Shown: in pieces, positions 2,665 to 54,370 of the stretch | How the letters are laid out: every line of letters starts with the position of its first letter | Position numbering within the stretch: position 1 is the first letter of the stretch | Source: an uncultured Akkermansia sp. | Lineage (GTDB): Bacteria > Verrucomicrobiota > Kiritimatiellia > RFP12 > JAAYNR01 | NCBI GenBank assembly: GCA_964506575.1 | Contig: CAZDLY010000005.1 | Span: 5,131-69,130 of the forward strand | Reading direction: 5' to 3' | DNA: 64,000 bases | Notes under the pieces: generated by a model | What the model saw: the letters and a program-made list of their open reading frames with translations, nothing else | The model's database searches: none | Told to the model about the DNA's origin: nothing | Made by a program: the position numbers and the translations under genes

Positions 2665-3570
2665 ATGAGACCAACGGAGATAGGCGATCAACGGAACTGG
2701 CGTGTGAGGATGTTTCTGTTGCACGGCGTCATGCTCGCGGTGCCCCTGGCCTTGCTTGTGACGCACACGCGATTTCATCCCCGCAGGTTTGGTGTCTGCC
2801 TATTTAGATGGGTGTTCGGCGTGGACTGCCCCGGATGCGGCATCACGCGATCGGCGATGGCGCTGCTGAACGGCGACTTGATCGGGGCTTTCCGTCTGCA
2901 CCCGGCGGGGCCGCTTGTCGTGTCGCTCATCGCGCTCATCGTGGCGTACCTCGTTCTGGCGCTGTTCACGCGGTTCAGGGGATTGGAATGGAGAAAGGAG
3001 GTACAGGCATTCACGGGAATTGAAATGCTGGCGTTTTCGGCGTTGGTGATTGGATGGGTTGGAAAAGGATTTCTAAACTATCAGAAACAGGAGAACTTAA
3101 ATGGCATTGGTATCATGTCCGAAGTGCTCAAAACAAACGTTTCAAGGTGGATTTCCGGCGTGGGAGATCATCGTGTCGATCTGTTTCTTCCCGCTGGGAT
3201 TGCTGTCGTTGCTGGCGGGGCGCAAACCCACGACGTGCCAGCATTGCAACCATGTCTGGCAGGCATAGGCGATCCGGTCGGACAACAGCGTGGCGCCTGC
3301 CCGATGCCCGAAACGGGCGCCGGGGGGCACACGCCGGACGTTCCTTTATTGCTCAAACTTCTCCCGATAGGCCCAGAGGCCGAGGGCGGGGTTGCTGATG
3401 AAAAAGATCTCTTCGCCGTCCGGCATCCGGTTCCAGCCGTCCTGGAGCCAATCCGGATTGTAGCGTGCGGCCATTTCCGCGTACGGAACGGCATCAAAAC
3501 CGACGGCTCGCACTTCCTCCAGCCCCACCCCGAAGCCCGGACAATAGGTGATGCGAAATCGGCCCTCTGA
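2665..3570 (+). CDS. DUF2752-like membrane protein; only about 2665-3090 looks like the domain, and the frame then stays open to 3570
   Basis: The CPGCGITR motif flanked by TM helices (..FGVDCPGCGITRSAMALL..) is the DUF2752 hallmark. There is no in-frame stop until 3570, so the formal ORF overlaps the small ORF at 3101-3268 and 225 nt of the convergent gene at 3346-4629. The true 3' end is uncertain. Confidence 0.5.
   Translation: MRPTEIGDQRNWRVRMFLLHGVMLAVPLALLVTHTRFHPRRFGVCLFRWVFGVDCPGCGITRSAMALLNGDLIGAFRLHPAGPLVVSLIALIVAYLVLALFTRFRGLEWRKEVQAFTGIEMLAFSALVIGWVGKGFLNYQKQENLNGIGIMSEVLKTNVSRWISGVGDHRVDLFLPAGIAVVAGGAQTHDVPALQPCLAGIGDPVGQQRGACPMPETGAGGHTPDVPLLLKLLPIGPEAEGGVADEKDLFAVRHPVPAVLEPIRIVACGHFRVRNGIKTDGSHFLQPHPEARTIGDAKSAL
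3101..3268 (+). CDS. Small (55 aa) LITAF-like zinc-ribbon membrane protein
   Basis: Below the ORF-track size cut-off. My own translation is MALVSCPKCSKQTFQGGFPAWEIIVSICFFPLGLLSLLAGRKPTTCQHCNHVWQA. The layout is CxxC, a hydrophobic hairpin, then CxxC. GGAG sits 8-11 nt upstream of the ATG, and third-codon positions are mostly G/C. Confidence 0.45.
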   Translation: MALVSCPKCSKQTFQGGFPAWEIIVSICFFPLGLLSLLAGRKPTTCQHCNHVWQA

Positions 3571-4629
3571 CGAACCGTGGATCAAATGGGCCGCCGCGCC
3601 CAGGTTGCCGCGCAGGTCGTCATTTTCCGCAACCGCCTTCAGCGTGGCCGGGGTTCCGCGATAGCCGTATTTGCGGATCAGCCCGTCGATGGCCGGGTCC
3701 TCGCCGAATTCCCTGAGCGCCGGGGCGAGGACGATCAGTTCGCCGCCGTCGGCGACCGCCAGGCGCGTGCGGTAGATCGCCTTGTTGCCGAGCCAGGTGC
3801 TCTGAAACTCGTGAGGATCGAGAGCAACCACCACTTTCCGAGGCTCGCGGTCGAGCAGGGTGATGTTCACCCGGCGCGCCAGCTTGCACGCCTCGTGATA
3901 CACCTGCGCGTCATCCCCGGCATAAAAACCGCGCAGATGCATCTGCCGCGTGACGGCATCCTGCTCGACCACCGTCAGAATGTAGGTGATCGGCAGATCC
4001 CCCAGAAACGTCTCGACGGCCGTGTTGAAGAGCCGGCGCACCGGCGTATCCGCCCGGCCGAGGATGGTCTCCATGTTGCAGACCGCTCCCAGGAAATGCG
4101 ATTTGTTGATGATGTCCGCCCCGCCCGCGCCCACGACGATATTCTTGGTGTAATTGGCCATGCCGGCCACTTCGTGCGGCACGACCTGCCCGATCGACAG
4201 GATCAGGTCGTAACCGTCGAGGAGCCGCCGGCTCACCTCCACGCCGACCGGATAGTCGGCCCGGCCTCCGGAAAGCGCGGCGAGCAGCGTCCCGGGAAGC
4301 TCGCCTCTGCGGACAATCCCGTTGCGCCAGTCATGCACCCGGAAGGCCGTCAACGGGATCGCGTCCCCAAACATCAGGCGAATCTGCCCCTCCGTCATGG
4401 CGTTGTGCGTGCCCAGGGTCGGCATCACGTCCACCCGCGTGCCCCGGGCCGTCAGCGCCTCGTAGGCCATCGCGGTGACCGCCCCCGCCTGCGAATGGAT
4501 GCGGGTGTGATCGGGTGGCAGCAGAAGCACGCGGCGCAGGGCTTCCGGGCGCGCGTCCAGCGTTCGCAGCACCAGCGCGCGCAGCTCCTCGCGCGAAATC
4601 GAGACCTGCTCTCCGCACTGCCTGATCAT
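3346..4629 (-). CDS. LarA-like (lactate racemase N-terminal domain / DUF2088) family protein
   Basis: 427 aa. Motif pattern ..LLLPPDHTR.., ..GTHN.., ..VVPHEVAGMANYTKN.. corresponds to the LarA-family H..AG..G..K block that includes the cofactor-binding Lys. Substrate unknown. Confidence 0.6.
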   Translation of the reverse strand: MIRQCGEQVSISREELRALVLRTLDARPEALRRVLLLPPDHTRIHSQAGAVTAMAYEALTARGTRVDVMPTLGTHNAMTEGQIRLMFGDAIPLTAFRVHDWRNGIVRRGELPGTLLAALSGGRADYPVGVEVSRRLLDGYDLILSIGQVVPHEVAGMANYTKNIVVGAGGADIINKSHFLGAVCNMETILGRADTPVRRLFNTAVETFLGDLPITYILTVVEQDAVTRQMHLRGFYAGDDAQVYHEACKLARRVNITLLDREPRKVVVALDPHEFQSTWLGNKAIYRTRLAVADGGELIVLAPALREFGEDPAIDGLIRKYGYRGTPATLKAVAENDDLRGNLGAAAHLIHGSSEGRFRITYCPGFGVGLEEVRAVGFDAVPYAEMAARYNPDWLQDGWNRMPDGEEIFFISNPALGLWAYREKFEQ

Positions 4630-10156: not shown

Positions 10157-10193
10157 CCGCTCCTGCGACACCGGTGCTTCCGCCCGGCACGTT

Positions 10194-10217
10194 CAAGGCC
10201 ACGAAGAACACGAAGTT
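10194..10217 (-). repeat. Short CTTCGTGyTCTTCGTkG module (reverse orientation)
   Basis: The reverse complement aacttcgtgttcttcgtggccttg matches ccttcgtgctcttcgttgtg at 34959-34978 in about 16 of 18 core positions. The match is short, so confidence is low. Confidence 0.3.
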
Positions 10218-10266
10218 TCACCAAGATACCGGGCCGCAAGGGACGGGCCTTCCGTTCCCTGCATCT

Positions 10267-10292
10267 GCCGCCGGCAAGGGACTGCCGGCGGC
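10267..10292 (+). terminator. Perfect 10-bp GC-rich hairpin about 110 nt downstream of the LarA-like gene
   Basis: gccgccggca-agggac-tgccggcggc. There is no clear U-tract, so this is only a candidate terminator or structural element. Confidence 0.35.
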
Positions 10293-11053
10293 TACTACAG
10301 CACCCCGCGCGCAGCAGCATGCCGGTGGGTCGGGCACCCAATCGAAATCGGGACCGGGACCGAAATCGTAATCGACAGCCATCCTGCAACATCCTGTTCA
10401 TCCTGTCCGCAACCGGGATCGTCCAAATCGGGATCGGTGTCGGTATCGGGGTCGATTTCTCCCGTCCAGTTGCTCGTGGCCAAATGCTATCTCGATCTCC
10501 TTTCCGACCCCGATAGCGATTTGGATGAGATCAAGCGCCAACAGGTTCCTGTCCAAAAGTACGGGTTTTGCACCGGCTACCTGCCGCGCGTTTCTCCGAC
10601 CATTCACCTGTCTGGTGCAACAACGATGCCGCAGGAGAAGCCGTCGTCCGGCACGGGGAAGAGCCGTCAGCATCGGCGCGGTGCGTTCCCACGTCCAACT
10701 CATCATCAACCCAGGCGGCCCCGCGCCGAGGGCTGGTCGTCGCAGATCGGGTCGCGGCGCAGCCGTCCGATGGGAAGCGCGTCAGATTGGTCCGTATGCA
10801 AGGCTTGAGACGAAGGGGCTGGATACGCATCCGCCCCGAGGCGAAAACGCAGCAGACGGGCCAATATCACGCGCTTCCCAGCGGCCCGATCCGCGACGTG
10901 CGTACTCACGGCAACACCAACTTGAACCTTCCAACTGCTTTTTTTAGGGTAAACGGCTCCAGGCCGAGTTCATCCGCATCCGCCTTCGTGCCGGACCACC
11001 GATCGTTTCCCTTGATCGCCACATGCCCTGTATTCATCTCGTTGTAGCCTTTC

Positions 11054-31657: not shown

Positions 31658-31737
31658 GGCGGATGCGTCGTCCGTCAGAATGGTTTCACGGTTCCACTTA
31701 TTTTTAATTGCTGTCTGTTCTAAAGGAGTCCCCCCCA

Positions 31738-34734
31738 ATGACCGGTTCATCTCGCTCGATGCGTGTTCAACTGACCGCAGCCGTTCTTGTTCTCGCCGGC
31801 GCGTGGGCGCACGCGCAGGACGATCATGGCGACATCGACGCGCTGCTGCAGGATTTGGGCGGTGGCGCGAAGCCGAAAGCCGCACCCGCCGTCCCGGTTG
31901 TCGCGGTTCCGGAGCCGGAAGCCCCTCCCCCCGCCGACGCCGGGACAGACCCCGTCAAGGCCGTGGTTGCCGAGCCGTTGCCCGGAGACGAGCCGTTGCC
32001 CGGAGACGAGCCGGAGGCCGGGACGGCCCCGGCGGAGCCAGAGGGAACAGGGGCCGACGCCGATCCCGCCGCGCCGGATGTTCTGAGCACTCCGGAATCG
32101 CGCGAGGCCGTGATTTCGGAACTGGCGACCCTTGAACGGATGCGCCGCGAAGCCAAGATCAGGCAGGGCGAAAATGAACTGGCGGCGGCACGGGAGGATC
32201 TGGCCAAAGGGCGGTATGACGAGGCCAAACGCAAGTTTTCGAACGCGCTGAGCTATATTCCGGACACGCCCGGCACCCGTGATTCGCGCATCGCGGCCGA
32301 GAAGGGGCTGGCCAACGCGCATTATCAGCATGCGCTGTCCCTCCGCAAAAAAGGGCTTCTGGACCAGGCGCTCGTCGAGGCGCGCACCGCGCAGGGCAAA
32401 GGCCAGGCACAGGCCGACCGGTTGATTGGAATGATCCAGAAAGAGCAGAAACTTCCGCCGATAAAGCCCGAGACCGTCGAGGTGCCGCGCGTGAGCCAGC
32501 CCGATTTCAAGGAGGATCGCGAGAAGGCGGCGGCCGGCCTGCGCCGCGCCCGCCAGCACTATGTGGCCGGCGAGTACGCCCGGGCGCGGGACGAGGCGGA
32601 ACTGGTCGTCAAGGATGAGCCGTTCAATACCGAGGCCATCCGCCTGCTCCGCCGCATCGCCGAACGGATGAACGAGGTTTCGAACCTGGAGCATCTGACC
32701 ACCCGCGAGCGGATGATCCGCGACGTGAGCGCCGCCTGGACGCCCGACCGGTATGGCGTCGACGCCGCCTTTGCCGTCGACCTGAAACCGAAGGCTGACG
32801 ACCCGTCCCTCGTCAGCAAGGCGCCGGACAAGGGCCTCTCGCAGGAGCAGGAAATCCAGAAGAAGATGCAGACGATCATGATTCCGTCGGTCCAGTTCAA
32901 CAAAGCCAACATCACCGATGTCATTTCGTTCCTCGAGAAGGCCAGCCGCGAGTACGACGCCGAAAAGGCGCCCGAGAAGCGCGGCATCAACTTTGTAATC
33001 AAGCCCGGCGGTGGCGGCGGGGCAACCCCTCCAAGCGGCGGCACGGCGACGCCCGATCCCTTTTCGCCCGCGGCAACCGGAGACGGGACGGCGGACGGCC
33101 TCGGCGCCGGGCCCATCACGTTCTCGGCCCACTATGTGACCCTGTACAGCGTCCTGAATACCGTCTTGGACGTCTCCAACATGAAGTTCAGGATCAAGGG
33201 CAACATCGTCACCATCATGCCGATGAACGTCCCGGACGACATCCTCATCACACGCTCCTACAACGTCCTGCCGACGCTCACCGAACGCGTCTTGTCCACT
33301 CACAAGGAGATCGCCCCGGGCGGTGGCTTGGACACCCCGCCCGATATGAGCTCGGCGACCGACTGGAAGGGTTTCTTCGGACAGATGGGCATCAAATGGC
33401 CCGAAGGTTCGGCCATCTCCTATCTGGCGACCATCGGCAAGCTCCGCGTGTCCAACACGGCAGACAATCTGGCCAATTTTGAGCAGGTGCTCGAGGAACT
33501 CAACGTCACCCCGCGCCAGATCGAGGTCGAAGCCCGCTTTGTCGAAGTCGCCCAGGAAGATCTCAACTCCCTCGGGTTCGAGTGGATCCTGAATGGAAAC
33601 CTGGGGATCAACACGGGGATCGGGTCGCTCGACAACTTCACATCCCTCCCGGATGGCAATCTGAATCCGCTGAGCGGCAATGCTTTTCTTGGCCCATACA
33701 AGTCGGGCGATCTGATTTTTGACGGCGGAGGGTCGGGCGGAAGGTGGGCCGATGTGGTGACCCCAGGCGTGCCGGATCCCCTCAATCCGGGAGGCTGGTT
33801 GATACCCCCCGGATCGTCGAGACAGTGGCAATGGGATACCAAGCCGCCCGCGAAGAGTTTCGGCCGCGGCATGCGTTTCCTCGACTCGACCGGAAACGGC
33901 GTGACCCCCGCCGGGACCACCAAGAATGACGACCTGCTGAAGCTGACCGCCGGGCTGGACGGCAACGCGATCTCCATGATCCTCCATGCGCTCAGCCAGA
34001 AGACGAGCACGGACGTCCTCTCCGCTCCCAAGGTGGTCACCAAGTCGGGCCAGGAGGCCATCATGAAGGTCATCACCGAATTCATCTACCCGACCACCTT
34101 TGACGTGCAGACCACTCCGACCACCACCGGCACTACCGGCAACACCATCCCGGGTGCAACGACGGTGGCGCCCTCGGACTTCGAAACCCGCGATGTCGGC
34201 GTGATTCTGCAGGTGCTCCCGGAGGTTTCGGCCGATGGCCAGATGATCAACCTGATGATGAACCCCCAGGTCGTCGCGCCGCCTGAGTGGAAGAATTACG
34301 GGTCGAAGGTTCCCCAATACACGCAGGAGACAGTAGTGGATCTTCTGGGACGATCAATCACGCGCACCGTGTTGCTGACGGATGCCGACGGCAACCCGAT
34401 TTATCTGGAGCAGCCCATGGAACAGCCGATCTTCAGGGTGCGGTCGGTCTCGACGAGCATCTCGATCTACAACGGCGCCACGGTCGTCATGGGCGGAATG
34501 ATCACCGAGGAGCGTGTGGCCACGTTTGACAAGATCCCGTTCCTTGGCGACCTCCCCTATCTGGGACGCCTGTTCCAGAGCAAGGGGGAGCGGACGGAAA
34601 AGCGCAACCTGCTGATCTTCGTGACGGCTCGCCTCGTGGACCCGGCCGGGCGCGTGGTGCGCACGGCTGGCGAGGAGAAACTGTTCACCGGCCTGCCCGA
34701 GTCGCTGACGGGCGCACCCGCCACGCCGAAATGA
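31738..34734 (+). CDS. Secretin (type II/III secretion system / PilQ family) with a long N-terminal extension
   Basis: 998 aa from ATG 31738 (AAGGAG RBS). Signal peptide ..LVLAGAWAHAQDD; an acidic Pro-rich region; a helical TPR-like region; then the secretin C-domain (..ISMILHALSQKTSTDVLSAPKVVTKSGQEAIMKV.., ..IPFLGDLPYLGRLFQS..NLLIFVTARLV). Confidence 0.85.
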   Translation: MTGSSRSMRVQLTAAVLVLAGAWAHAQDDHGDIDALLQDLGGGAKPKAAPAVPVVAVPEPEAPPPADAGTDPVKAVVAEPLPGDEPLPGDEPEAGTAPAEPEGTGADADPAAPDVLSTPESREAVISELATLERMRREAKIRQGENELAAAREDLAKGRYDEAKRKFSNALSYIPDTPGTRDSRIAAEKGLANAHYQHALSLRKKGLLDQALVEARTAQGKGQAQADRLIGMIQKEQKLPPIKPETVEVPRVSQPDFKEDREKAAAGLRRARQHYVAGEYARARDEAELVVKDEPFNTEAIRLLRRIAERMNEVSNLEHLTTRERMIRDVSAAWTPDRYGVDAAFAVDLKPKADDPSLVSKAPDKGLSQEQEIQKKMQTIMIPSVQFNKANITDVISFLEKASREYDAEKAPEKRGINFVIKPGGGGGATPPSGGTATPDPFSPAATGDGTADGLGAGPITFSAHYVTLYSVLNTVLDVSNMKFRIKGNIVTIMPMNVPDDILITRSYNVLPTLTERVLSTHKEIAPGGGLDTPPDMSSATDWKGFFGQMGIKWPEGSAISYLATIGKLRVSNTADNLANFEQVLEELNVTPRQIEVEARFVEVAQEDLNSLGFEWILNGNLGINTGIGSLDNFTSLPDGNLNPLSGNAFLGPYKSGDLIFDGGGSGGRWADVVTPGVPDPLNPGGWLIPPGSSRQWQWDTKPPAKSFGRGMRFLDSTGNGVTPAGTTKNDDLLKLTAGLDGNAISMILHALSQKTSTDVLSAPKVVTKSGQEAIMKVITEFIYPTTFDVQTTPTTTGTTGNTIPGATTVAPSDFETRDVGVILQVLPEVSADGQMINLMMNPQVVAPPEWKNYGSKVPQYTQETVVDLLGRSITRTVLLTDADGNPIYLEQPMEQPIFRVRSVSTSISIYNGATVVMGGMITEERVATFDKIPFLGDLPYLGRLFQSKGERTEKRNLLIFVTARLVDPAGRVVRTAGEEKLFTGLPESLTGAPATPK
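31972..32007 (+). repeat. Perfect 18-bp tandem duplication inside the secretin gene (EPLPGD x2)
   Basis: gagccgttgcccggagac occurs at 31972-31989 and again at 31990-32007, followed by a partial third copy (gagccgg). Confidence 0.9.
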
Positions 34735-34759
34735 CACTTTCCTGAGAGACTTCTACCCT

Positions 34760-34818
34760 CTTAATCGTGATCCTGATCTTGGAGGCTCCTGCACCCCCCC
34801 ATCCGGGGTGTTTGCAGG
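34760..34818 (+). repeat. Intergenic repeat modules B (cttaatcgtgatcctgatcttgg) and C (ggctcctgcacccccccatccggggtgtttgcagg), contiguous here
   Basis: Module B matches the reverse complement of 43519-43541 (cttaatcgtRatcctRatcttg). Module C matches the reverse complement of 43101-43136 in about 30 of 36 positions. Confidence 0.75.
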
Positions 34819-34822
34819 ATGG

Positions 34823-34854
34823 AAGTCAGAATTCAGAAGTCAGGAGTCAGAATA
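34823..34854 (+). repeat. 7-nt periodic low-complexity module (GAAGTCA-like x4-5)
   Basis: gaagtca gaattca gaagtca ggagtca gaat. Confidence 0.7.
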
Positions 34855-34958
34855 ATAGAATGCGTTGCCCGTGAGAGGGTTCCCATTCTGAATTTTGAAT
34901 GCTGCGCTTGCAGAACCGACGAAGGCGGTTTTGCAAGCGCCTCGCGTCCCTAATATTT

Positions 34959-34978
34959 CCTTCGTGCTCTTCGTTGTG
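34959..34978 (+). repeat. CTTCGTGyTCTTCGTkG module (forward copy)
   Basis: See 10194-10217. The match is short. Confidence 0.3.
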
Positions 34979-35048
34979 CAAATTGCCTTTTTTGGTTCAT
35001 TCACGGTCCCCTGCGATCTTGGCGACTGAAATCCTGTCTCATTTTATG

Positions 35049-35093
35049 TTCCATCCGGCAGCAGGCCGGCGGCCCGACTGAACGCTGAACCCT
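35049..35093 (+). repeat. Repeat module A: 25-nt core ttccatccggcagcaggccggcggc followed by ctgaacgctgaaccc
   Basis: The core matches 54281-54305 at 23 of 25 positions. Both copies are preceded by ctcaNNNNNgt and followed by a CTGAACC-type periodic tail. Confidence 0.8.
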
Positions 35094-35097
35094 TCCG

Positions 35098-35778
35098 ATG
35101 AGAAAGCGCGCACGCATAAAAATAACGTCCGCTAATTCGCTTGACGGCCCGCCCGATAAAGGGCATCATGGCCGCACTCCTGAAGAAAAGCGGTTTGCCG
35201 TCACCGGCGGAATCGCCTGTGGCAAGAGTGCTTTCTCCCGTTTTCTGGCTGATTCGGGGTGCGAGGTGCTGGACGCGGATGATGTGGTTCACCGTCTTGA
35301 ATCTCCCGGCGGCCGTGCGGTTCCATTGCTTGCGGAGGCGTTTGGTCCCGCCGTGTGCGCGGCGGACGGCGGGATCCGTCGGGATGTGCTCGGTCGTCTT
35401 GTTTTTTCCGATGCTGTCGCACGGGAACGGCTGAATGGCATCATCCACCCGCTGGTTCGGGCTGAACTGGATGGCTGGTTACGGCGCCCGAAGACAGGCA
35501 AGCTCCGTTTTGCGGTGATTCCCCTGCTGTTCGAAGCCGGCTGGCGGGATCACTTTGACTGCGTGGTCTGCCTGGCCTGCAGCGTGGCCACGCAGACGGG
35601 GCGGTTGCTCAGCCGGGGACTCACGGAAAAAGAGGCCGCGCTGCGCATCGGTGCGCAAATGCCGGTTGGAGAGAAAGCGCGTCTTTCAGACCGTGTGGTC
35701 TGGAATGACGGATCGTTGGAAGCGTTGAGGCGCGAGGCGGATGTTCTGGTTCGCGACCTTTCGGAGAGTGGTGCATGA
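35098..35778 (+). CDS. coaE: Dephospho-CoA kinase
   Basis: ..[14 protein letters not shown].. P-loop, ..VLDADDVVH.., ..IIHPLVR.., ..AVIPLLFE... It has a ~30-aa basic N-terminal extension, because no alternative start lies closer to the P-loop. Confidence 0.8.
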
Positions 35779-43100: not shown

Positions 43101-43136
43101 CCTGAAAACACCCCGGAGGGGTGGGGTGCAAGAGCC
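43101..43136 (-). repeat. Repeat module C, reverse orientation
   Basis: The reverse complement ggctcttgcaccccacccctccggggtgttttcagg matches 34784-34818. Confidence 0.75.
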
Positions 43137-43160
43137 TGAGCGCATCCCCGTTTCACTGAC

Positions 43161-43448
43161 TTGCGCATGAAATGCAAGGGAGACTGGATCAAGGCGGTCA
43201 AGACGGCAATGAAAGGCACCACGGATCTCCCCGTCTATTCCATTCGGGCGCCCGCCCTCATTCCGGGTGTCGGCTTCTCCGATCACTCCAGCTACTGGCC
43301 TCGCGGCTTCAACGCGCTCATGATCACGGACACCGCCTTTTATCGAAACACAGAGTACCACACGATCAACGATACGGAGGACCGGCTTGACTATGGCCGG
43401 ATGTCCAAGGTCGTTGTGGCTGTGTTTGAGGCGATACGAAACCTATGA
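43161..43448 (+). pseudogene. C-terminal ~90-aa fragment of an M28-family metallopeptidase
   Basis: ..GVGFSDHSSYWPRGFNALMITDTAFYRNTEYHTINDTEDRLDYGRMSKVV.. matches the M28 C-terminal zinc-ligand region (SDH..F...G.PA....DTA..RN..YH...DT...LDY). Only the 3' end and the stop are present. The track 'start' is a TTG. Confidence 0.7.
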
Positions 43449-43510
43449 TCGCAAGGGCGCTTACTTAAGCGATGCTTCCGATCATAATCATAATCCGTTC
43501 TCCACCATGA

Positions 43511-43545
43511 GATTAAGATCAAGATTAGGATTACGATTAAGATGG
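43511..43545 (-). repeat. 6-nt periodic module (GATNNN x6) containing repeat module B in reverse orientation
   Basis: gattaa gatcaa gattag gattac gattaa gatgg. The reverse complement of 43519-43541 matches 34760-34782. Confidence 0.75.
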
Positions 43546-43693
43546 CAAAAGCGCCTTATATGAGCGCCATTACCCTATGATTGGCGAACCGCCGGACACT
43601 GCCGGGGCCAGCGTTTTCTTGTCGCCAGACGGGGGGACATGATAAGCTGGCGGGGTCTGGGGTTCAGAGTTTTGCACGGAATAGCTTCGTTAT

Positions 43694-43723
43694 CTTTCCT
43701 GAACCCTGAACCCCGAACCCTGG
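43694..43723 (+). repeat. CTGAACC-type 7-nt periodic module (tail part of module A)
   Basis: ctttcctgaaccctgaaccccgaaccctgg, compared with ctttcctgaacccctgaaccct at 54305-54326. Confidence 0.7.
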
Positions 43724-51959: not shown

Positions 51960-52068
51960 GGTCCGCAGGCGCCTCCATCATCAGCGGCTCGGCGGGACGC
52001 CGCCGCCCTACCCGCGCGTTGCGCCTTTCCCGGAATCCTGAACCCTTTCTCGTCCCCGCATAAGCGGG

Positions 52069-53320: not shown

Positions 53321-53401
53321 CTTGAGGCGGGAGAATCGAATAAATCGATAGAATCGACGGAATCGAATCGGTCGAATCGGTCGAATCTATCGATTCCATC
53401 G
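53321..53401 (+). repeat. GAATCGA-type periodic array, left flank of the four-helix-bundle gene
   Basis: It contains the 24-nt core aatcgacggaatcgaatcggtcga (53352-53375). This matches 54214-54237 at 22 of 24 positions, in the same orientation. It ends in tcgattccatcg, as the right copy does. Confidence 0.8.
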
Positions 53402-53419
53402 AAACGAAAGGAGCGGGAC

Positions 53420-54169
53420 ATGAGCCTATTCGGCGGGACGGGTGGCTACTTCTGGCTGGATTCGTGGATTCTGGCCAATATCGTTCAGCTTGGGACGCAA
53501 CGCTTCTGCAAGCGCTTCCTGAACCGCACGAACGATCCATGCGGGCGACAGTACGACCAGATGACGCAGGCCGCACGGTCGGGGTGCGCAAACATCGCCG
53601 AGGGATCGGCGCGACGGGCGACCTCTAAAGAAACCGAGATGCGGCTGACGGACGTGGCTCGGGCGAGTCTGGCGGAATTGGCAGGCGACTACCTGAACTG
53701 GCTTTTTCAGCAGGAGAAGGTCCCCTGGGGCAAGGAGACGCCCGAGGCGCGGGCGGTTTACGCCGTGCGCTTGGACAAGGCGGCGTACGACGAGGATGTG
53801 GTGCATGATGCCTGCGCGCACATTCTGACGCAGAAGCGGAAGTTTGCAGTGTGGCTGGAGTCGGAAAGCGACGAGACGATGGCGAACACACTCCTTATTC
53901 TTATTGCGCGGGTGATCAACATGCTCAACCACCAGATGGAGAAGCAGTGCGAGACTTTCAAAGAGGAGGGCGGCTTTCGCGAAAAGCTAACCGGCCTGCG
54001 AGTGGAGGCGCGGGCGAAGCAGGAGGCCGCGCCGGTTTGCCCCGACTGCGGCAAGGCGATGACGCGCCGCACGGCCAAGAGCGGCAAGAACGCGGGGAAG
54101 GGATTTTGGGGTTGCACGGGATACCCGGAGTGCACCGGCGTGAGGGAACTCGAAGGAGAGAAGAAATGA
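53420..54169 (+). CDS. Four-helix-bundle (23S rRNA IVS-type) protein with suffix domain and C-terminal topoisomerase-type C4 zinc finger
   Basis: 249 aa from ATG 53420 (AAAGGAG RBS). ..QMTQAARSGCANIAEGSAR.. is the four-helix-bundle family signature. The middle region resembles the 'four helix bundle suffix' domain seen in PVC genomes (recall). The C-terminus CPDCGKAMTRRTAKSGKNAGKGFWGCTGYPEC is the zf-C4-topoisomerase pattern. Confidence 0.75.
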   Translation: MSLFGGTGGYFWLDSWILANIVQLGTQRFCKRFLNRTNDPCGRQYDQMTQAARSGCANIAEGSARRATSKETEMRLTDVARASLAELAGDYLNWLFQQEKVPWGKETPEARAVYAVRLDKAAYDEDVVHDACAHILTQKRKFAVWLESESDETMANTLLILIARVINMLNHQMEKQCETFKEEGGFREKLTGLRVEARAKQEAAPVCPDCGKAMTRRTAKSGKNAGKGFWGCTGYPECTGVRELEGEKK

Positions 54170-54185: not shown

Positions 54186-54256
54186 TTCGAGGGGAATCGA
54201 ATGAGTCGAGAAAATCGATGGAATCGAATCCGTCGATTCCATCGATTCCATCGCTC
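54186..54256 (+). repeat. GAATCGA-type periodic array, right flank of the four-helix-bundle gene
   Basis: See 53321-53401. It contains the perfect 8-bp inverted pair ggaatcga/tcgattcc (54222-54242). Confidence 0.8.
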
Positions 54257-54280
54257 CCGATAAACCCGGCTCAATCCTGT

Positions 54281-54329
54281 TTCCATCCGGCTGCAGGCTG
54301 GCGGCTTTCCTGAACCCCTGAACCCTACA
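54281..54329 (+). repeat. Repeat module A, second copy (core ttccatccggctgcaggctggcggc + ctttcctgaacccctgaaccct)
   Basis: The core is 23/25 identical to 35049-35073, and the tail is similar to 43694-43716. Confidence 0.8.
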
Positions 54330-54359
54330 CCCGCAAAACCGCCGTGGCGGTTTTGCGGG
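54330..54359. terminator. Near-perfect 13-14-bp hairpin between the four-helix-bundle gene and the PPDK remnant
   Basis: cccgcaaaaccgcc-gt-ggcggttttgcggg. It lies 11 nt downstream of the PPDK-remnant stop (minus strand) and is followed by a T-rich stretch on the plus strand. Confidence 0.45.
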
Positions 54360-54370
54360 TGCCTCCGGGA

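Follow-up and report, generated by a model that had tools for sequence, protein, structure and literature searches.

The subject of this analysis is the 363-nt spacer at positions 34735–35097 of a 64-kb stretch of DNA (the window) from an Akkermansia-like member of the Verrucomicrobiota. The spacer separates the stop codon of a secretin gene from the ATG of coaE at 35098. The secretin is encoded by a 1008-aa open reading frame (ORF; 31708–34734) with a match to the Pfam family Secretin, and the genes located 5′ of it match the Pfam families Amuc_1102, PilM_2, and Amuc_1100. On the 3′ side, coaE (35098–35778) lacks a Shine–Dalgarno (SD) sequence and is followed by rho, which overlaps it at 35775–35778. 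Three metagenome contigs of the same species (L001–L003; related loci are cited by such numbers throughout) are 99.9% identical to the window, with no indels, over 25.1–45.8 kb, and carry an identical spacer. The nearest other species, whose CoaE is 84% identical, are represented by metagenome-assembled genomes (MAGs) labeled Kiritimatiellia (L006) and "Akkermansia muciniphila" (L007).

A first-pass annotation had described the spacer as richer in AT than its surroundings and as a mosaic of distinct short modules with copies elsewhere in the window. The GC content of the spacer is indeed 0.49–0.55, compared with 0.59–0.66 in the flanks, and all the modules were found at the places given for them. 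Using blastn-short within the window, we recovered one copy each of module C (43137–43101, minus strand; 89% over 37 nt, E 1e-3), module A (54281–54305, plus strand; 92% over 25 nt, E 1e-3), and module B (43542–43520, minus strand; 91% over 23 nt, E 0.02). The weaker copy of the CTTCGTG module proposed at 10.2 kb (10201–10215) is a 15-nt match with an E value of about 5, which is chance level within the window. In 1.19 Mb of related sequence that we fetched, 187 of the 363 spacer bases recurred at nonorthologous loci (14 hits at E < 0.01), whereas each of 20 shuffled controls gave no hit. The modules are thus neither confined to the loci first noticed nor matched equally well by shuffled sequence.

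A 162-nt unit with inverted termini

Three of the parts that had been listed as separate modules, namely module C, the GAAGTCA heptads, and a 9-bp inverted repeat, form together with an intervening loop a single 162-nt unit on the plus strand (34782–34943), in which two terminal hairpins enclose a hairpin with heptad arms. The proposed mosaic stands as a chain of dispersed intergenic repeats, with these three parts joined into one element. The outer inverted termini of the unit are GAGGCTCCTGCACCCC and GTTTTGCAAGCGCCTC. The unit aligns end to end with L114 1414–1588 (78% identity, E 3e-41), a 175-nt paralog that has both termini intact and is flanked by the 4-bp target duplication CATA. The L114 locus is not orthologous to the spacer. 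It comes from the MAG that holds the coaE ortholog L006, on a different contig and with divergent genes on its two sides.

The right terminus of the window unit, GTTTTGCAAGCGCCTC at 34928–34943, is intact. It matches the scan pattern exactly and scores 27 bits with a position weight matrix (PWM), compared with a null maximum of 14.9. The left terminus is degenerate, with 12/16 matches to the terminus consensus GAGGCTCTTGCAAAAC, and the flanks of the unit, GATCTTG and GCGTCCC, hold no target duplication. Because of these two features, the degenerate window copy is probably immobile. The 9-bp inverted repeat extends to 15-nt arms (34904–18 and 34926–40); this repeat and module C are two variants of the palindrome GGCGCTTGCAAAAC...GTTTTGCAAGCGCC. 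The right hairpin as a whole (34904–34943) is 95% identical over 37 nt to a 43-nt unit at L014 3626–3668, and an internal segment (34842–34879) matches L004 421–458 (87% over 38 nt). Copies or fragments of the 162-nt unit are present at unrelated loci, at 43.1 and 54.3 kb of the window and in L004, L014, and L114. The sole ORF of at least 60 aa in the spacer, a mechanical one of 60 aa (34899–35081), begins within the unit and extends past its end.

Terminal repeats, target duplications, and an IS1182-type transposase

The consensus GAGGCTCTTGCAAAAC bounds noncoding units of 39–293 nt in many MAGs of the Planctomycetes–Verrucomicrobia–Chlamydiae (PVC) superphylum. Exact direct repeats of 4–5 bp lie at the outer edges of 10 among 23 units that are bounded by GAGGC[TG]CTTGCAAAAC ... 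GTTTTGCAAG[AC]GCCTC. In 5000 permutations the mean was 0.7 and the highest count 5, and the flanking repeats are therefore interpreted as target-site duplications. The units include size classes of 101 nt and about 131 nt. Their ends can themselves be terminus-loop-terminus hairpins, and the same hairpins also occur alone, as 39- to 43-nt minimal forms of miniature transposable elements with inverted repeats (MITEs). In a scan for GTTTTGCAAGMGCCT, about one-third of the matches listed came from PVC-superphylum MAGs; by our own estimate, roughly 2000 matches are expected by chance for a 15-mer in 596 Gb. In the PVC loci, the motif forms the outer arm of a hairpin or paired inverted termini that enclose 39–293 nt. 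The ORFs that adjoin lone terminus matches were set aside as mostly chance matches within coding sequence. A 1430-bp "terminus pair" in Treponema (L025) was likewise dropped, its left match being poor and its ORF resembling, by eye, an AraC-type regulator.

Members of the 101-nt class share these termini and also, in their interior, a conserved double hairpin of CATGGGCGTCCCGCCCATG and CACGGGCAAGATGCCCGTG. They were observed at L007 3798–3898 and L132 1296–1396 and also in L012, L020, L050, L056, L067, L075, and L108, in MAGs labeled Kiritimatiellia, Lentisphaerae, and Verrucomicrobia. One such unit occupies the secretin–coaE spacer of a sister species (L007/L132) and is absent from the window and from L006; divergence among the spacers is too great for an empty site to be defined. 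The first-pass annotation did not recognize the spacer repeats as a described family, and our searches agree with it. No Rfam match was obtained, a DNA search of the palindrome against plasmids gave no match, and literature searches, within the library covered, for repeats of Akkermansia or Verrucomicrobia and for the exact terminus and double-hairpin sequences also returned none.

The same termini, again with 4-bp duplications, bound insertion sequences (ISs) of 1.4–1.65 kb that encode DUF772 + DDE_Tnp_1 transposases. The transposase has >2000 homologs. A genome scan with an alignment of it provided the best 80 IS loci, which are mainly from Proteobacteria and include no PVC members. The consensus GAGGCTCTTGCAAAAC ... 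GTTTTGCAAGAGGCTC is found at 63 of the 80, and 29 of these 63 have 4-bp duplications. Ferrovum JA12 has two 1426-bp copies with the termini GAGGCTCTTGCAAAAC / ATTTTGCAAGAAGCTC and the duplications TTAT and CTTT, and one of the two copies splits an SSF gene. A Gallionella MAG has the same termini at a distance of 1376 bp, with a frameshifted DUF772/DDE transposase between them. Exactly the termini of the short units are carried by four 1613-bp copies from a single metagenome (L254–257), with the duplication GAAT in L256. The closest plasmid relative carries the NCBI (PGAP) annotation "IS1182-like element ISUnCu17 family transposase" and has the termini GAGCCTCTTGCAAAAG/GTTTTGCAAGAAGCTC and the duplication ATGA. 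NCBIfam places the transposase between IS1182 and IS5, under both cut-offs. PVC genomes evidently carry the IS as well, judging from a Kiritimatiellia MAG (L056), in which a transposase C terminus lies about 150–250 nt from a terminus, and a Lentisphaerae MAG (L067), in which an IS end is near-identical to that of L254. A first reading of the ends as ISL3-like was abandoned; the enclosed transposase is DUF772+DDE_Tnp_1 of the IS1182/IS5 type.

Two side observations concern this IS group. On the Aeromonas caviae plasmid NZ_AP026405.1 (L258, 25112–27272), an ISUnCu17-like IS lies between qacEdelta1/sul1 and aac(6′)-Ib, a gene order that looks like a class 1 integron. Given this placement, the group also travels on resistance plasmids. 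In the L248–L253 subgroup, the transposase is called as orfA (107 aa, DUF772) and orfB (237 aa, DDE_Tnp_1). Because the split recurs in several independent contigs, a genuine arrangement as two ORFs, or with a frameshift, is possible.

The first-pass annotation had compared the spacer with the repetitive extragenic palindromes (REPs) that are combined into bacterial interspersed mosaic elements (BIMEs), and such palindromes would be mobilized by a REP-associated tyrosine transposase (RAYT) of the IS200/IS605 type. The comparison has some basis, because the 39- to 43-nt forms are imperfect intergenic palindromes that occur in both orientations and combine with other short motifs into mosaics, as do enterobacterial REP/BIMEs and GTAG/CGTC-tagged REPs (PMC3733652). 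The arms, however, begin with GAGGC and lack the GTAG/CGTC head by which REPs are defined (PMC3733652). Exact 4-bp target duplications flank many of the units, and the arms have the same sequence as the ends of IS1182-family elements of the DDE type, whose associated gene encodes a DDE transposase and not a RAYT. RAYT/IS200-type single-strand transposition is not known to make target duplications. We consider a REP origin of the palindromes extremely unlikely.

Together, these data make it probable that nonautonomous elements, MITEs and what is left of decayed ones, are nested in the spacer and are derived from an IS1182-family (ISUnCu17-like) group of ISs. In the mechanism that we propose, a DDE transposase would recognize terminal inverted repeats (TIRs) of about 16–20 nt, with the consensus GAGGCTCTTGCAAAAC(CCC), and would make 4-bp target duplications. 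Copies would have reached permissive intergenic DNA by mobilization in trans, and slippage within arrays, recombination between hairpins, and deletion may later have shuffled and truncated them. The hexad array and the CTTCGTG heptads of the spacer would be fragments of related composites, and the window copy, with its degenerate left terminus and no target duplication, would be a dead relic. Its present effect is presumably incidental, with hairpins placed in the 3′ region of the secretin gene and in the coaE–rho leader. The unstructured, C/A-rich heptad tail beside the SD-less start of coaE may have been co-opted.

Module A, short-period arrays, and the coaE leader

Module A consists of a small hairpin, CCGGC-AGCAG-GCCGG (35049–35073), followed by a tail of CTGAACG/CTGAACC heptads that extends to 35092. 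It matches L004 6463–6502 (92% over 40 nt, E 6e-9), L005 (96% over 25 nt), and L102 (89% over 45 nt). In L004 6244–6536 (293 nt) and L017 6111–6361 (251 nt), module A and CTGAACC heptads sit just inside the terminal hairpins, and in L102 module A, heptads, and terminal hairpin follow one another in the same order as at window 54281–54365. The latter segment holds the full right end of this larger subfamily, and the copy at 35049–35092 is without the terminal hairpin. By this comparison of sequences, module A with its CTGAACC tail is recognizable as the subterminal portion of MITEs from a larger subfamily of about 250–290 nt. A scan of genomes with module A returned two loci only (L004 and L005), both in one other MAG. 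There, as in the window, its companions are CTGAACC heptads, the hexad-arm hairpin with the conserved loop, and the palindrome GGCGCTTGCAAAAC...GTTTTGCAAGCGCC.

The modules are recombined differently from locus to locus (Table 1). L005 has the order E, hexad hairpin, A, and in the window these lie at 51.97, 43.5, and 35.05/54.28 kb. The hexad-arm hairpin at 43481–43558 is 86% identical over 78 nt to L005 2273–2202 (E 6e-14). In L102 and L083, as in the window, the GATTAn hexads of module B directly border a GCCTC terminus. The copy of 34842–34879 in L004 is followed immediately by CTTCGTG heptads that make up a complete hairpin (465–520). Between the terminal hairpin at 43101–43137 and the hexad hairpin at 43481–43558 lies a 101-aa ORF (43143–43448) whose match to Peptidase_M28 (E 1e-4) is confined to the C-terminal quarter of that family; the ORF is probably a gene remnant.

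Table 1. Repeat modules of the spacer and related features of the window. TRF, Tandem Repeats Finder.
Feature	Position	Strand	Remarks
Whole secretin–coaE spacer	34735–35097		363 nt, AT-richer than flanks
Hexad array (module B, TCTTAATCGTGATCCTGATCTTG)	34759–34782		Adjoins left MITE terminus; copy at 43542–43520(−)
Left terminal hairpin (module C; palindrome 34783–34818)	34782–34820	+	Outer arm is a degenerate TIR
GAAGTCA/GAATTCA heptads, 4.4 copies	34822–34852	+	TRF; 5′ arm of internal hairpin; aligned with L114 heptads
Heptad hairpin: loop GCGTTGCCCGTGAGAGGGTTCC, shortened 3′ arm CATTCTGAATTTTGAATG	34853–34903	+	Aligned with L114
Right terminal hairpin (9-bp inverted repeat of the first-pass annotation)	34904–34943	+	40-nt mini-MITE form
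CTTCGTG heptad remnant	34955–34978	+	Two CTTCGTG at 34959–34974
Module A with CTGAACG/CTGAACC tail	35049–35092	+	Ends ~5 nt before coaE ATG
Second module C hairpin, a degenerate terminal hairpin	43101–43137	−	blastn-short match to spacer module C
Hexad-arm hairpin (ATCATA... / GATTAn...), conserved loop	43481–43558		TRF; holds in-window module B copy
Heptad-arm hairpin GGGGTCTGGGGTTCAGAG ... (CCTGAAC)3.6	43652–43723		96% over 25 nt to L004 6419–6443
Module E (CTCCATCATCAGCGGCTCGGCGGGACGCCGCCGCCC)	51973–52008	+	95% over 37 nt, E 2e-8, to L005 2126–2162
Second module A, CCTGAACC heptads, terminal hairpin 54328–54361 ending in TIR-like GTTTTGCGGGTGCCTC	54281–54365	+	

In L006, L007, and L132, diverged versions of module A are likewise found immediately before the coaE ATG and carry heptads of their own, CTGAACA or CTGACCC. 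A metagenome scan with CoaE added only two further close orthologs. At 84% CoaE identity, the orthologous spacers share only their last ~50 nt; the remainder is unrelated in sequence and in module content. Because diverged versions hold the same place while the rest of the spacers is unrelated, the module A copy before coaE is best read as an old insertion of which the distal part has been kept. The kept part possibly serves as the leader of the SD-less coaE. A little further downstream, within the first 20 codons of coaE (35134–35160), AATTCGCTTGACGGCCCGCCCGATAA is nucleotide-identical in the window, L006, and L007, and the AT-rich codons that precede it differ. A promoter scan flags TTGACG-17-CATCAT at the same positions. 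This conservation could mark an internal promoter or merely a conserved N terminus.

These features bear on the possibility that the spacer is a selected cis-regulatory RNA, in which the first hairpin would end or stabilize the pilus/secretin transcript and the rest would form a structured coaE–rho leader, for example, a Rho-dependent attenuator, with the repeats elsewhere as a shared regulatory motif. The overlap of coaE and rho makes the spacer the leader of a rho-containing operon, module A and its heptad tail hold their position before the coaE ATG in four related species, and coaE is without an SD sequence. Compared with shuffled sequences, the plus strand folds with a z score of −2.8 and the minus strand with −1.2, which lends such a role weak support. 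On the other hand, the orthologous spacers have nothing in common beyond the last ~50 nt, and the same modules lie between divergent genes in L114 and between convergent genes at 54.3 kb. No intrinsic-terminator-like site was found. With Rfam 15 at the gathering score, the whole window yielded two tRNAs only, and at E values up to 10 there was no credible match in the spacer or in six related loci. Finally, the termini, the duplications, and the transposase account for the palindromes without any function. An RNA of this kind is in our judgment quite improbable as an explanation of the spacer.

The first-pass annotation was right that the spacer is built partly from low-complexity units; the heptad and hexad arrays are real and are an unusual ingredient, which descent from MITEs explains only in part. 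Cyanobacterial short tandemly repeated repetitive (STRR) sequences are heptamer repeats to which the window arrays can be likened. In 278 kb of PVC loci, we counted 103 short-period arrays, of which 23 (22%) lie within 150 nt of termini, a zone that comprises 5.4% of the bases; the arrays are thus about 4-fold enriched there. The other 80 are >150 nt from any terminus-like site. Heptad copy number varies between close strains (×3 in L007 versus ×6 in L132, and in another case ×2 versus ×1), and identical array units recur across MAGs with different taxonomic labels. In the window, the arrays other than the CTGAACG/CTGAACC tail before coaE are not next to start codons. A resemblance to CsrA-type GGA motifs, assessed by eye, was not general.

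Such arrays could instead be the primary elements. Hexads, heptads, 9-mers, and 12- to 13-mers would then constitute an independent class of PVC tandem repeats, like the cyanobacterial STRR sequences or the TAACTGA heptamers, accumulated in permissive spacers through slippage or some unknown active process; the IS1182-type MITE would only ride along, inserting by preference beside them. The 80 distant arrays point in this direction, as do the recurrence of the same units in differently labeled MAGs, the arrays that, in the window and in L056, L083, and L007/L132, directly border termini on their outer side, chains of 5–6 arrays with no terminus nearby in L040, and 9-mer arrays without a terminus of their own around a four-helix-bundle gene of the window. 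Intergenic heptamers close to start codons also have a published precedent (PMC4679880). Against array primacy, heptad hairpins or module A lie within terminus-bounded, duplication-flanked units (L052, L114, L004, and L017), with CTGAACC-type heptad hairpins inside the CCTT-flanked unit of L052. The enrichment near termini also speaks against it, and the palindromes, which are the best-conserved parts, are left unexplained. We hold this alternative to be unlikely.

Several of the arrays merit description in their own right. The chains of L040, a Lentisphaerae MAG, run back to back at 3400–3850 and 4340–4620, with different arrays of periods 6, 7, 8, 9, 12, and 13. The four-helix-bundle protein (Pfam 23S_rRNA_IVP, a weak match) is fused to a Top1-type zinc ribbon and encoded at window 53420–54169; a tblastn search with it against all fetched loci found only itself. 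Its gene is flanked by 9-nt-period arrays of GAATCGATn (53332–53407 and 54190–54262), 86–90% alike and each self-complementary, the second of which is followed by module A, heptads, and a terminal hairpin. A further region of ~900 nt without a convincing gene (10157–11053) contains CATCCTG repeats, inverted hexad arrays (10419–10455 / 10492–10528), and a 43-nt inverted repeat (10757–10799 / 10852–10894), the core of which, AGCCGTCCGATGGGAA, recurs in L004 6194–6209.

Other observations weigh against the derivation of the spacer from MITEs. The window copy itself shows weak hallmarks, with no target duplication and the imperfect left terminus, so that the MITE label rests on its homology to the L114 copy. 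A PWM scan of the 64 kb for degenerate termini found a single strong terminus and recovered only the pair at 34.9 kb. Exact duplications are absent from 13 of the 23 units, and a search confined to the window found no transposase of the IS1182 type. No terminus-bounded unit was found around module B, the CTTCGTG heptads, or 34979–35048. The 80 arrays far from termini suggest that arrays may be a separate phenomenon, and the better-than-shuffled folding of the plus strand would fit some selection acting on the RNA.

Relation to known repeats and significance

Bacterial MITEs of DDE ISs are the closest parallel. Features that the family shares with them are TIRs of ~16–20 nt identical to the IS termini, the 4-bp duplication, a length of 39–293 nt with no ORF, many unrelated intergenic copies, and defined size classes. 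Here, by contrast, the ends can be terminus-loop-terminus hairpins, minimal forms look REP-like, the interior consists of hairpin-forming short-period arrays, and the window copy is degenerate. Pneumococcal BOX (boxA-boxB(n)-boxC) and the Correia/NIME (Neisseria intergenic mosaic element) sequences are modular intergenic repeats that likewise have few module types, a variable number of internal units, and hairpins; there is no sequence relation to them. No cognate transposase is known for BOX; the elements described here have an identified cognate IS group.

The arrays most resemble the direct repeats of the heptamer TAACTGA in Beggiatoaceae, Cyanobacteria, and Bacteroidetes, which are intergenic, lie just upstream of start codons, and have no known mechanism of transfer (MacGregor 2015, PMC4679880). 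Both are intergenic tandem heptamers with a patchy phylogenetic spread. Forward-oriented heptamers shortly before SD-less starts, frequent among the published repeats, are seen here at coaE, and a CTGA core is shared with the CTGAACC, CTGAACG, and (on the other strand) TTCTGA units of the window. The repeats described here differ in their units, in having several units per locus and periods of 6, 9, 12, and 13 as well, and in commonly forming inverted pairs. Some are carried inside MITEs, which would supply the missing transfer mechanism. Heptad arrays riding inside MITEs are the most interesting lead of this work, seen for some arrays and not established as general. A broader proposal is that the arrays are more than debris of slippage and that PVC bacteria share, as a counterpart of the cyanobacterial STRR and Beggiatoa TAACTGA repeats, a repertoire of sequence-specific tandem-repeat units that IS1182-type MITEs carry between loci and genomes, in which CTGA-core heptads before SD-less starts would be binding sites for a translation or RNA-binding factor; we regard it as unlikely.

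There is no sign of a new biochemical system. The MITE family seems to be undescribed in Akkermansia-like bacteria, and relics such as the one in the window are common genomic litter. For annotation, the REP-like palindrome GAGGCKCTTGCAAAAC...GTTTTGCAAGMGCCTC in MAGs labeled Verrucomicrobia, Kiritimatiellia, and Lentisphaerae can be labeled as a terminus of an IS1182-family (ISUnCu17-like) MITE, and for assembly, such sites help explain the contig breaks that occur there. The heptamer arrays inside duplication-flanked units offer a testable route of spreading; how the TAACTGA repeats spread had been left unanswered (PMC4679880). Because orthologous spacers share only ~50 nt and heptad numbers vary, intergenic turnover is fast. 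The intergenic regions of Akkermansia-like bacteria turn over much faster than the genes that flank them, which matters whenever promoters and leaders are compared, for example, those of the Amuc_1100 pilus cluster and of rho.

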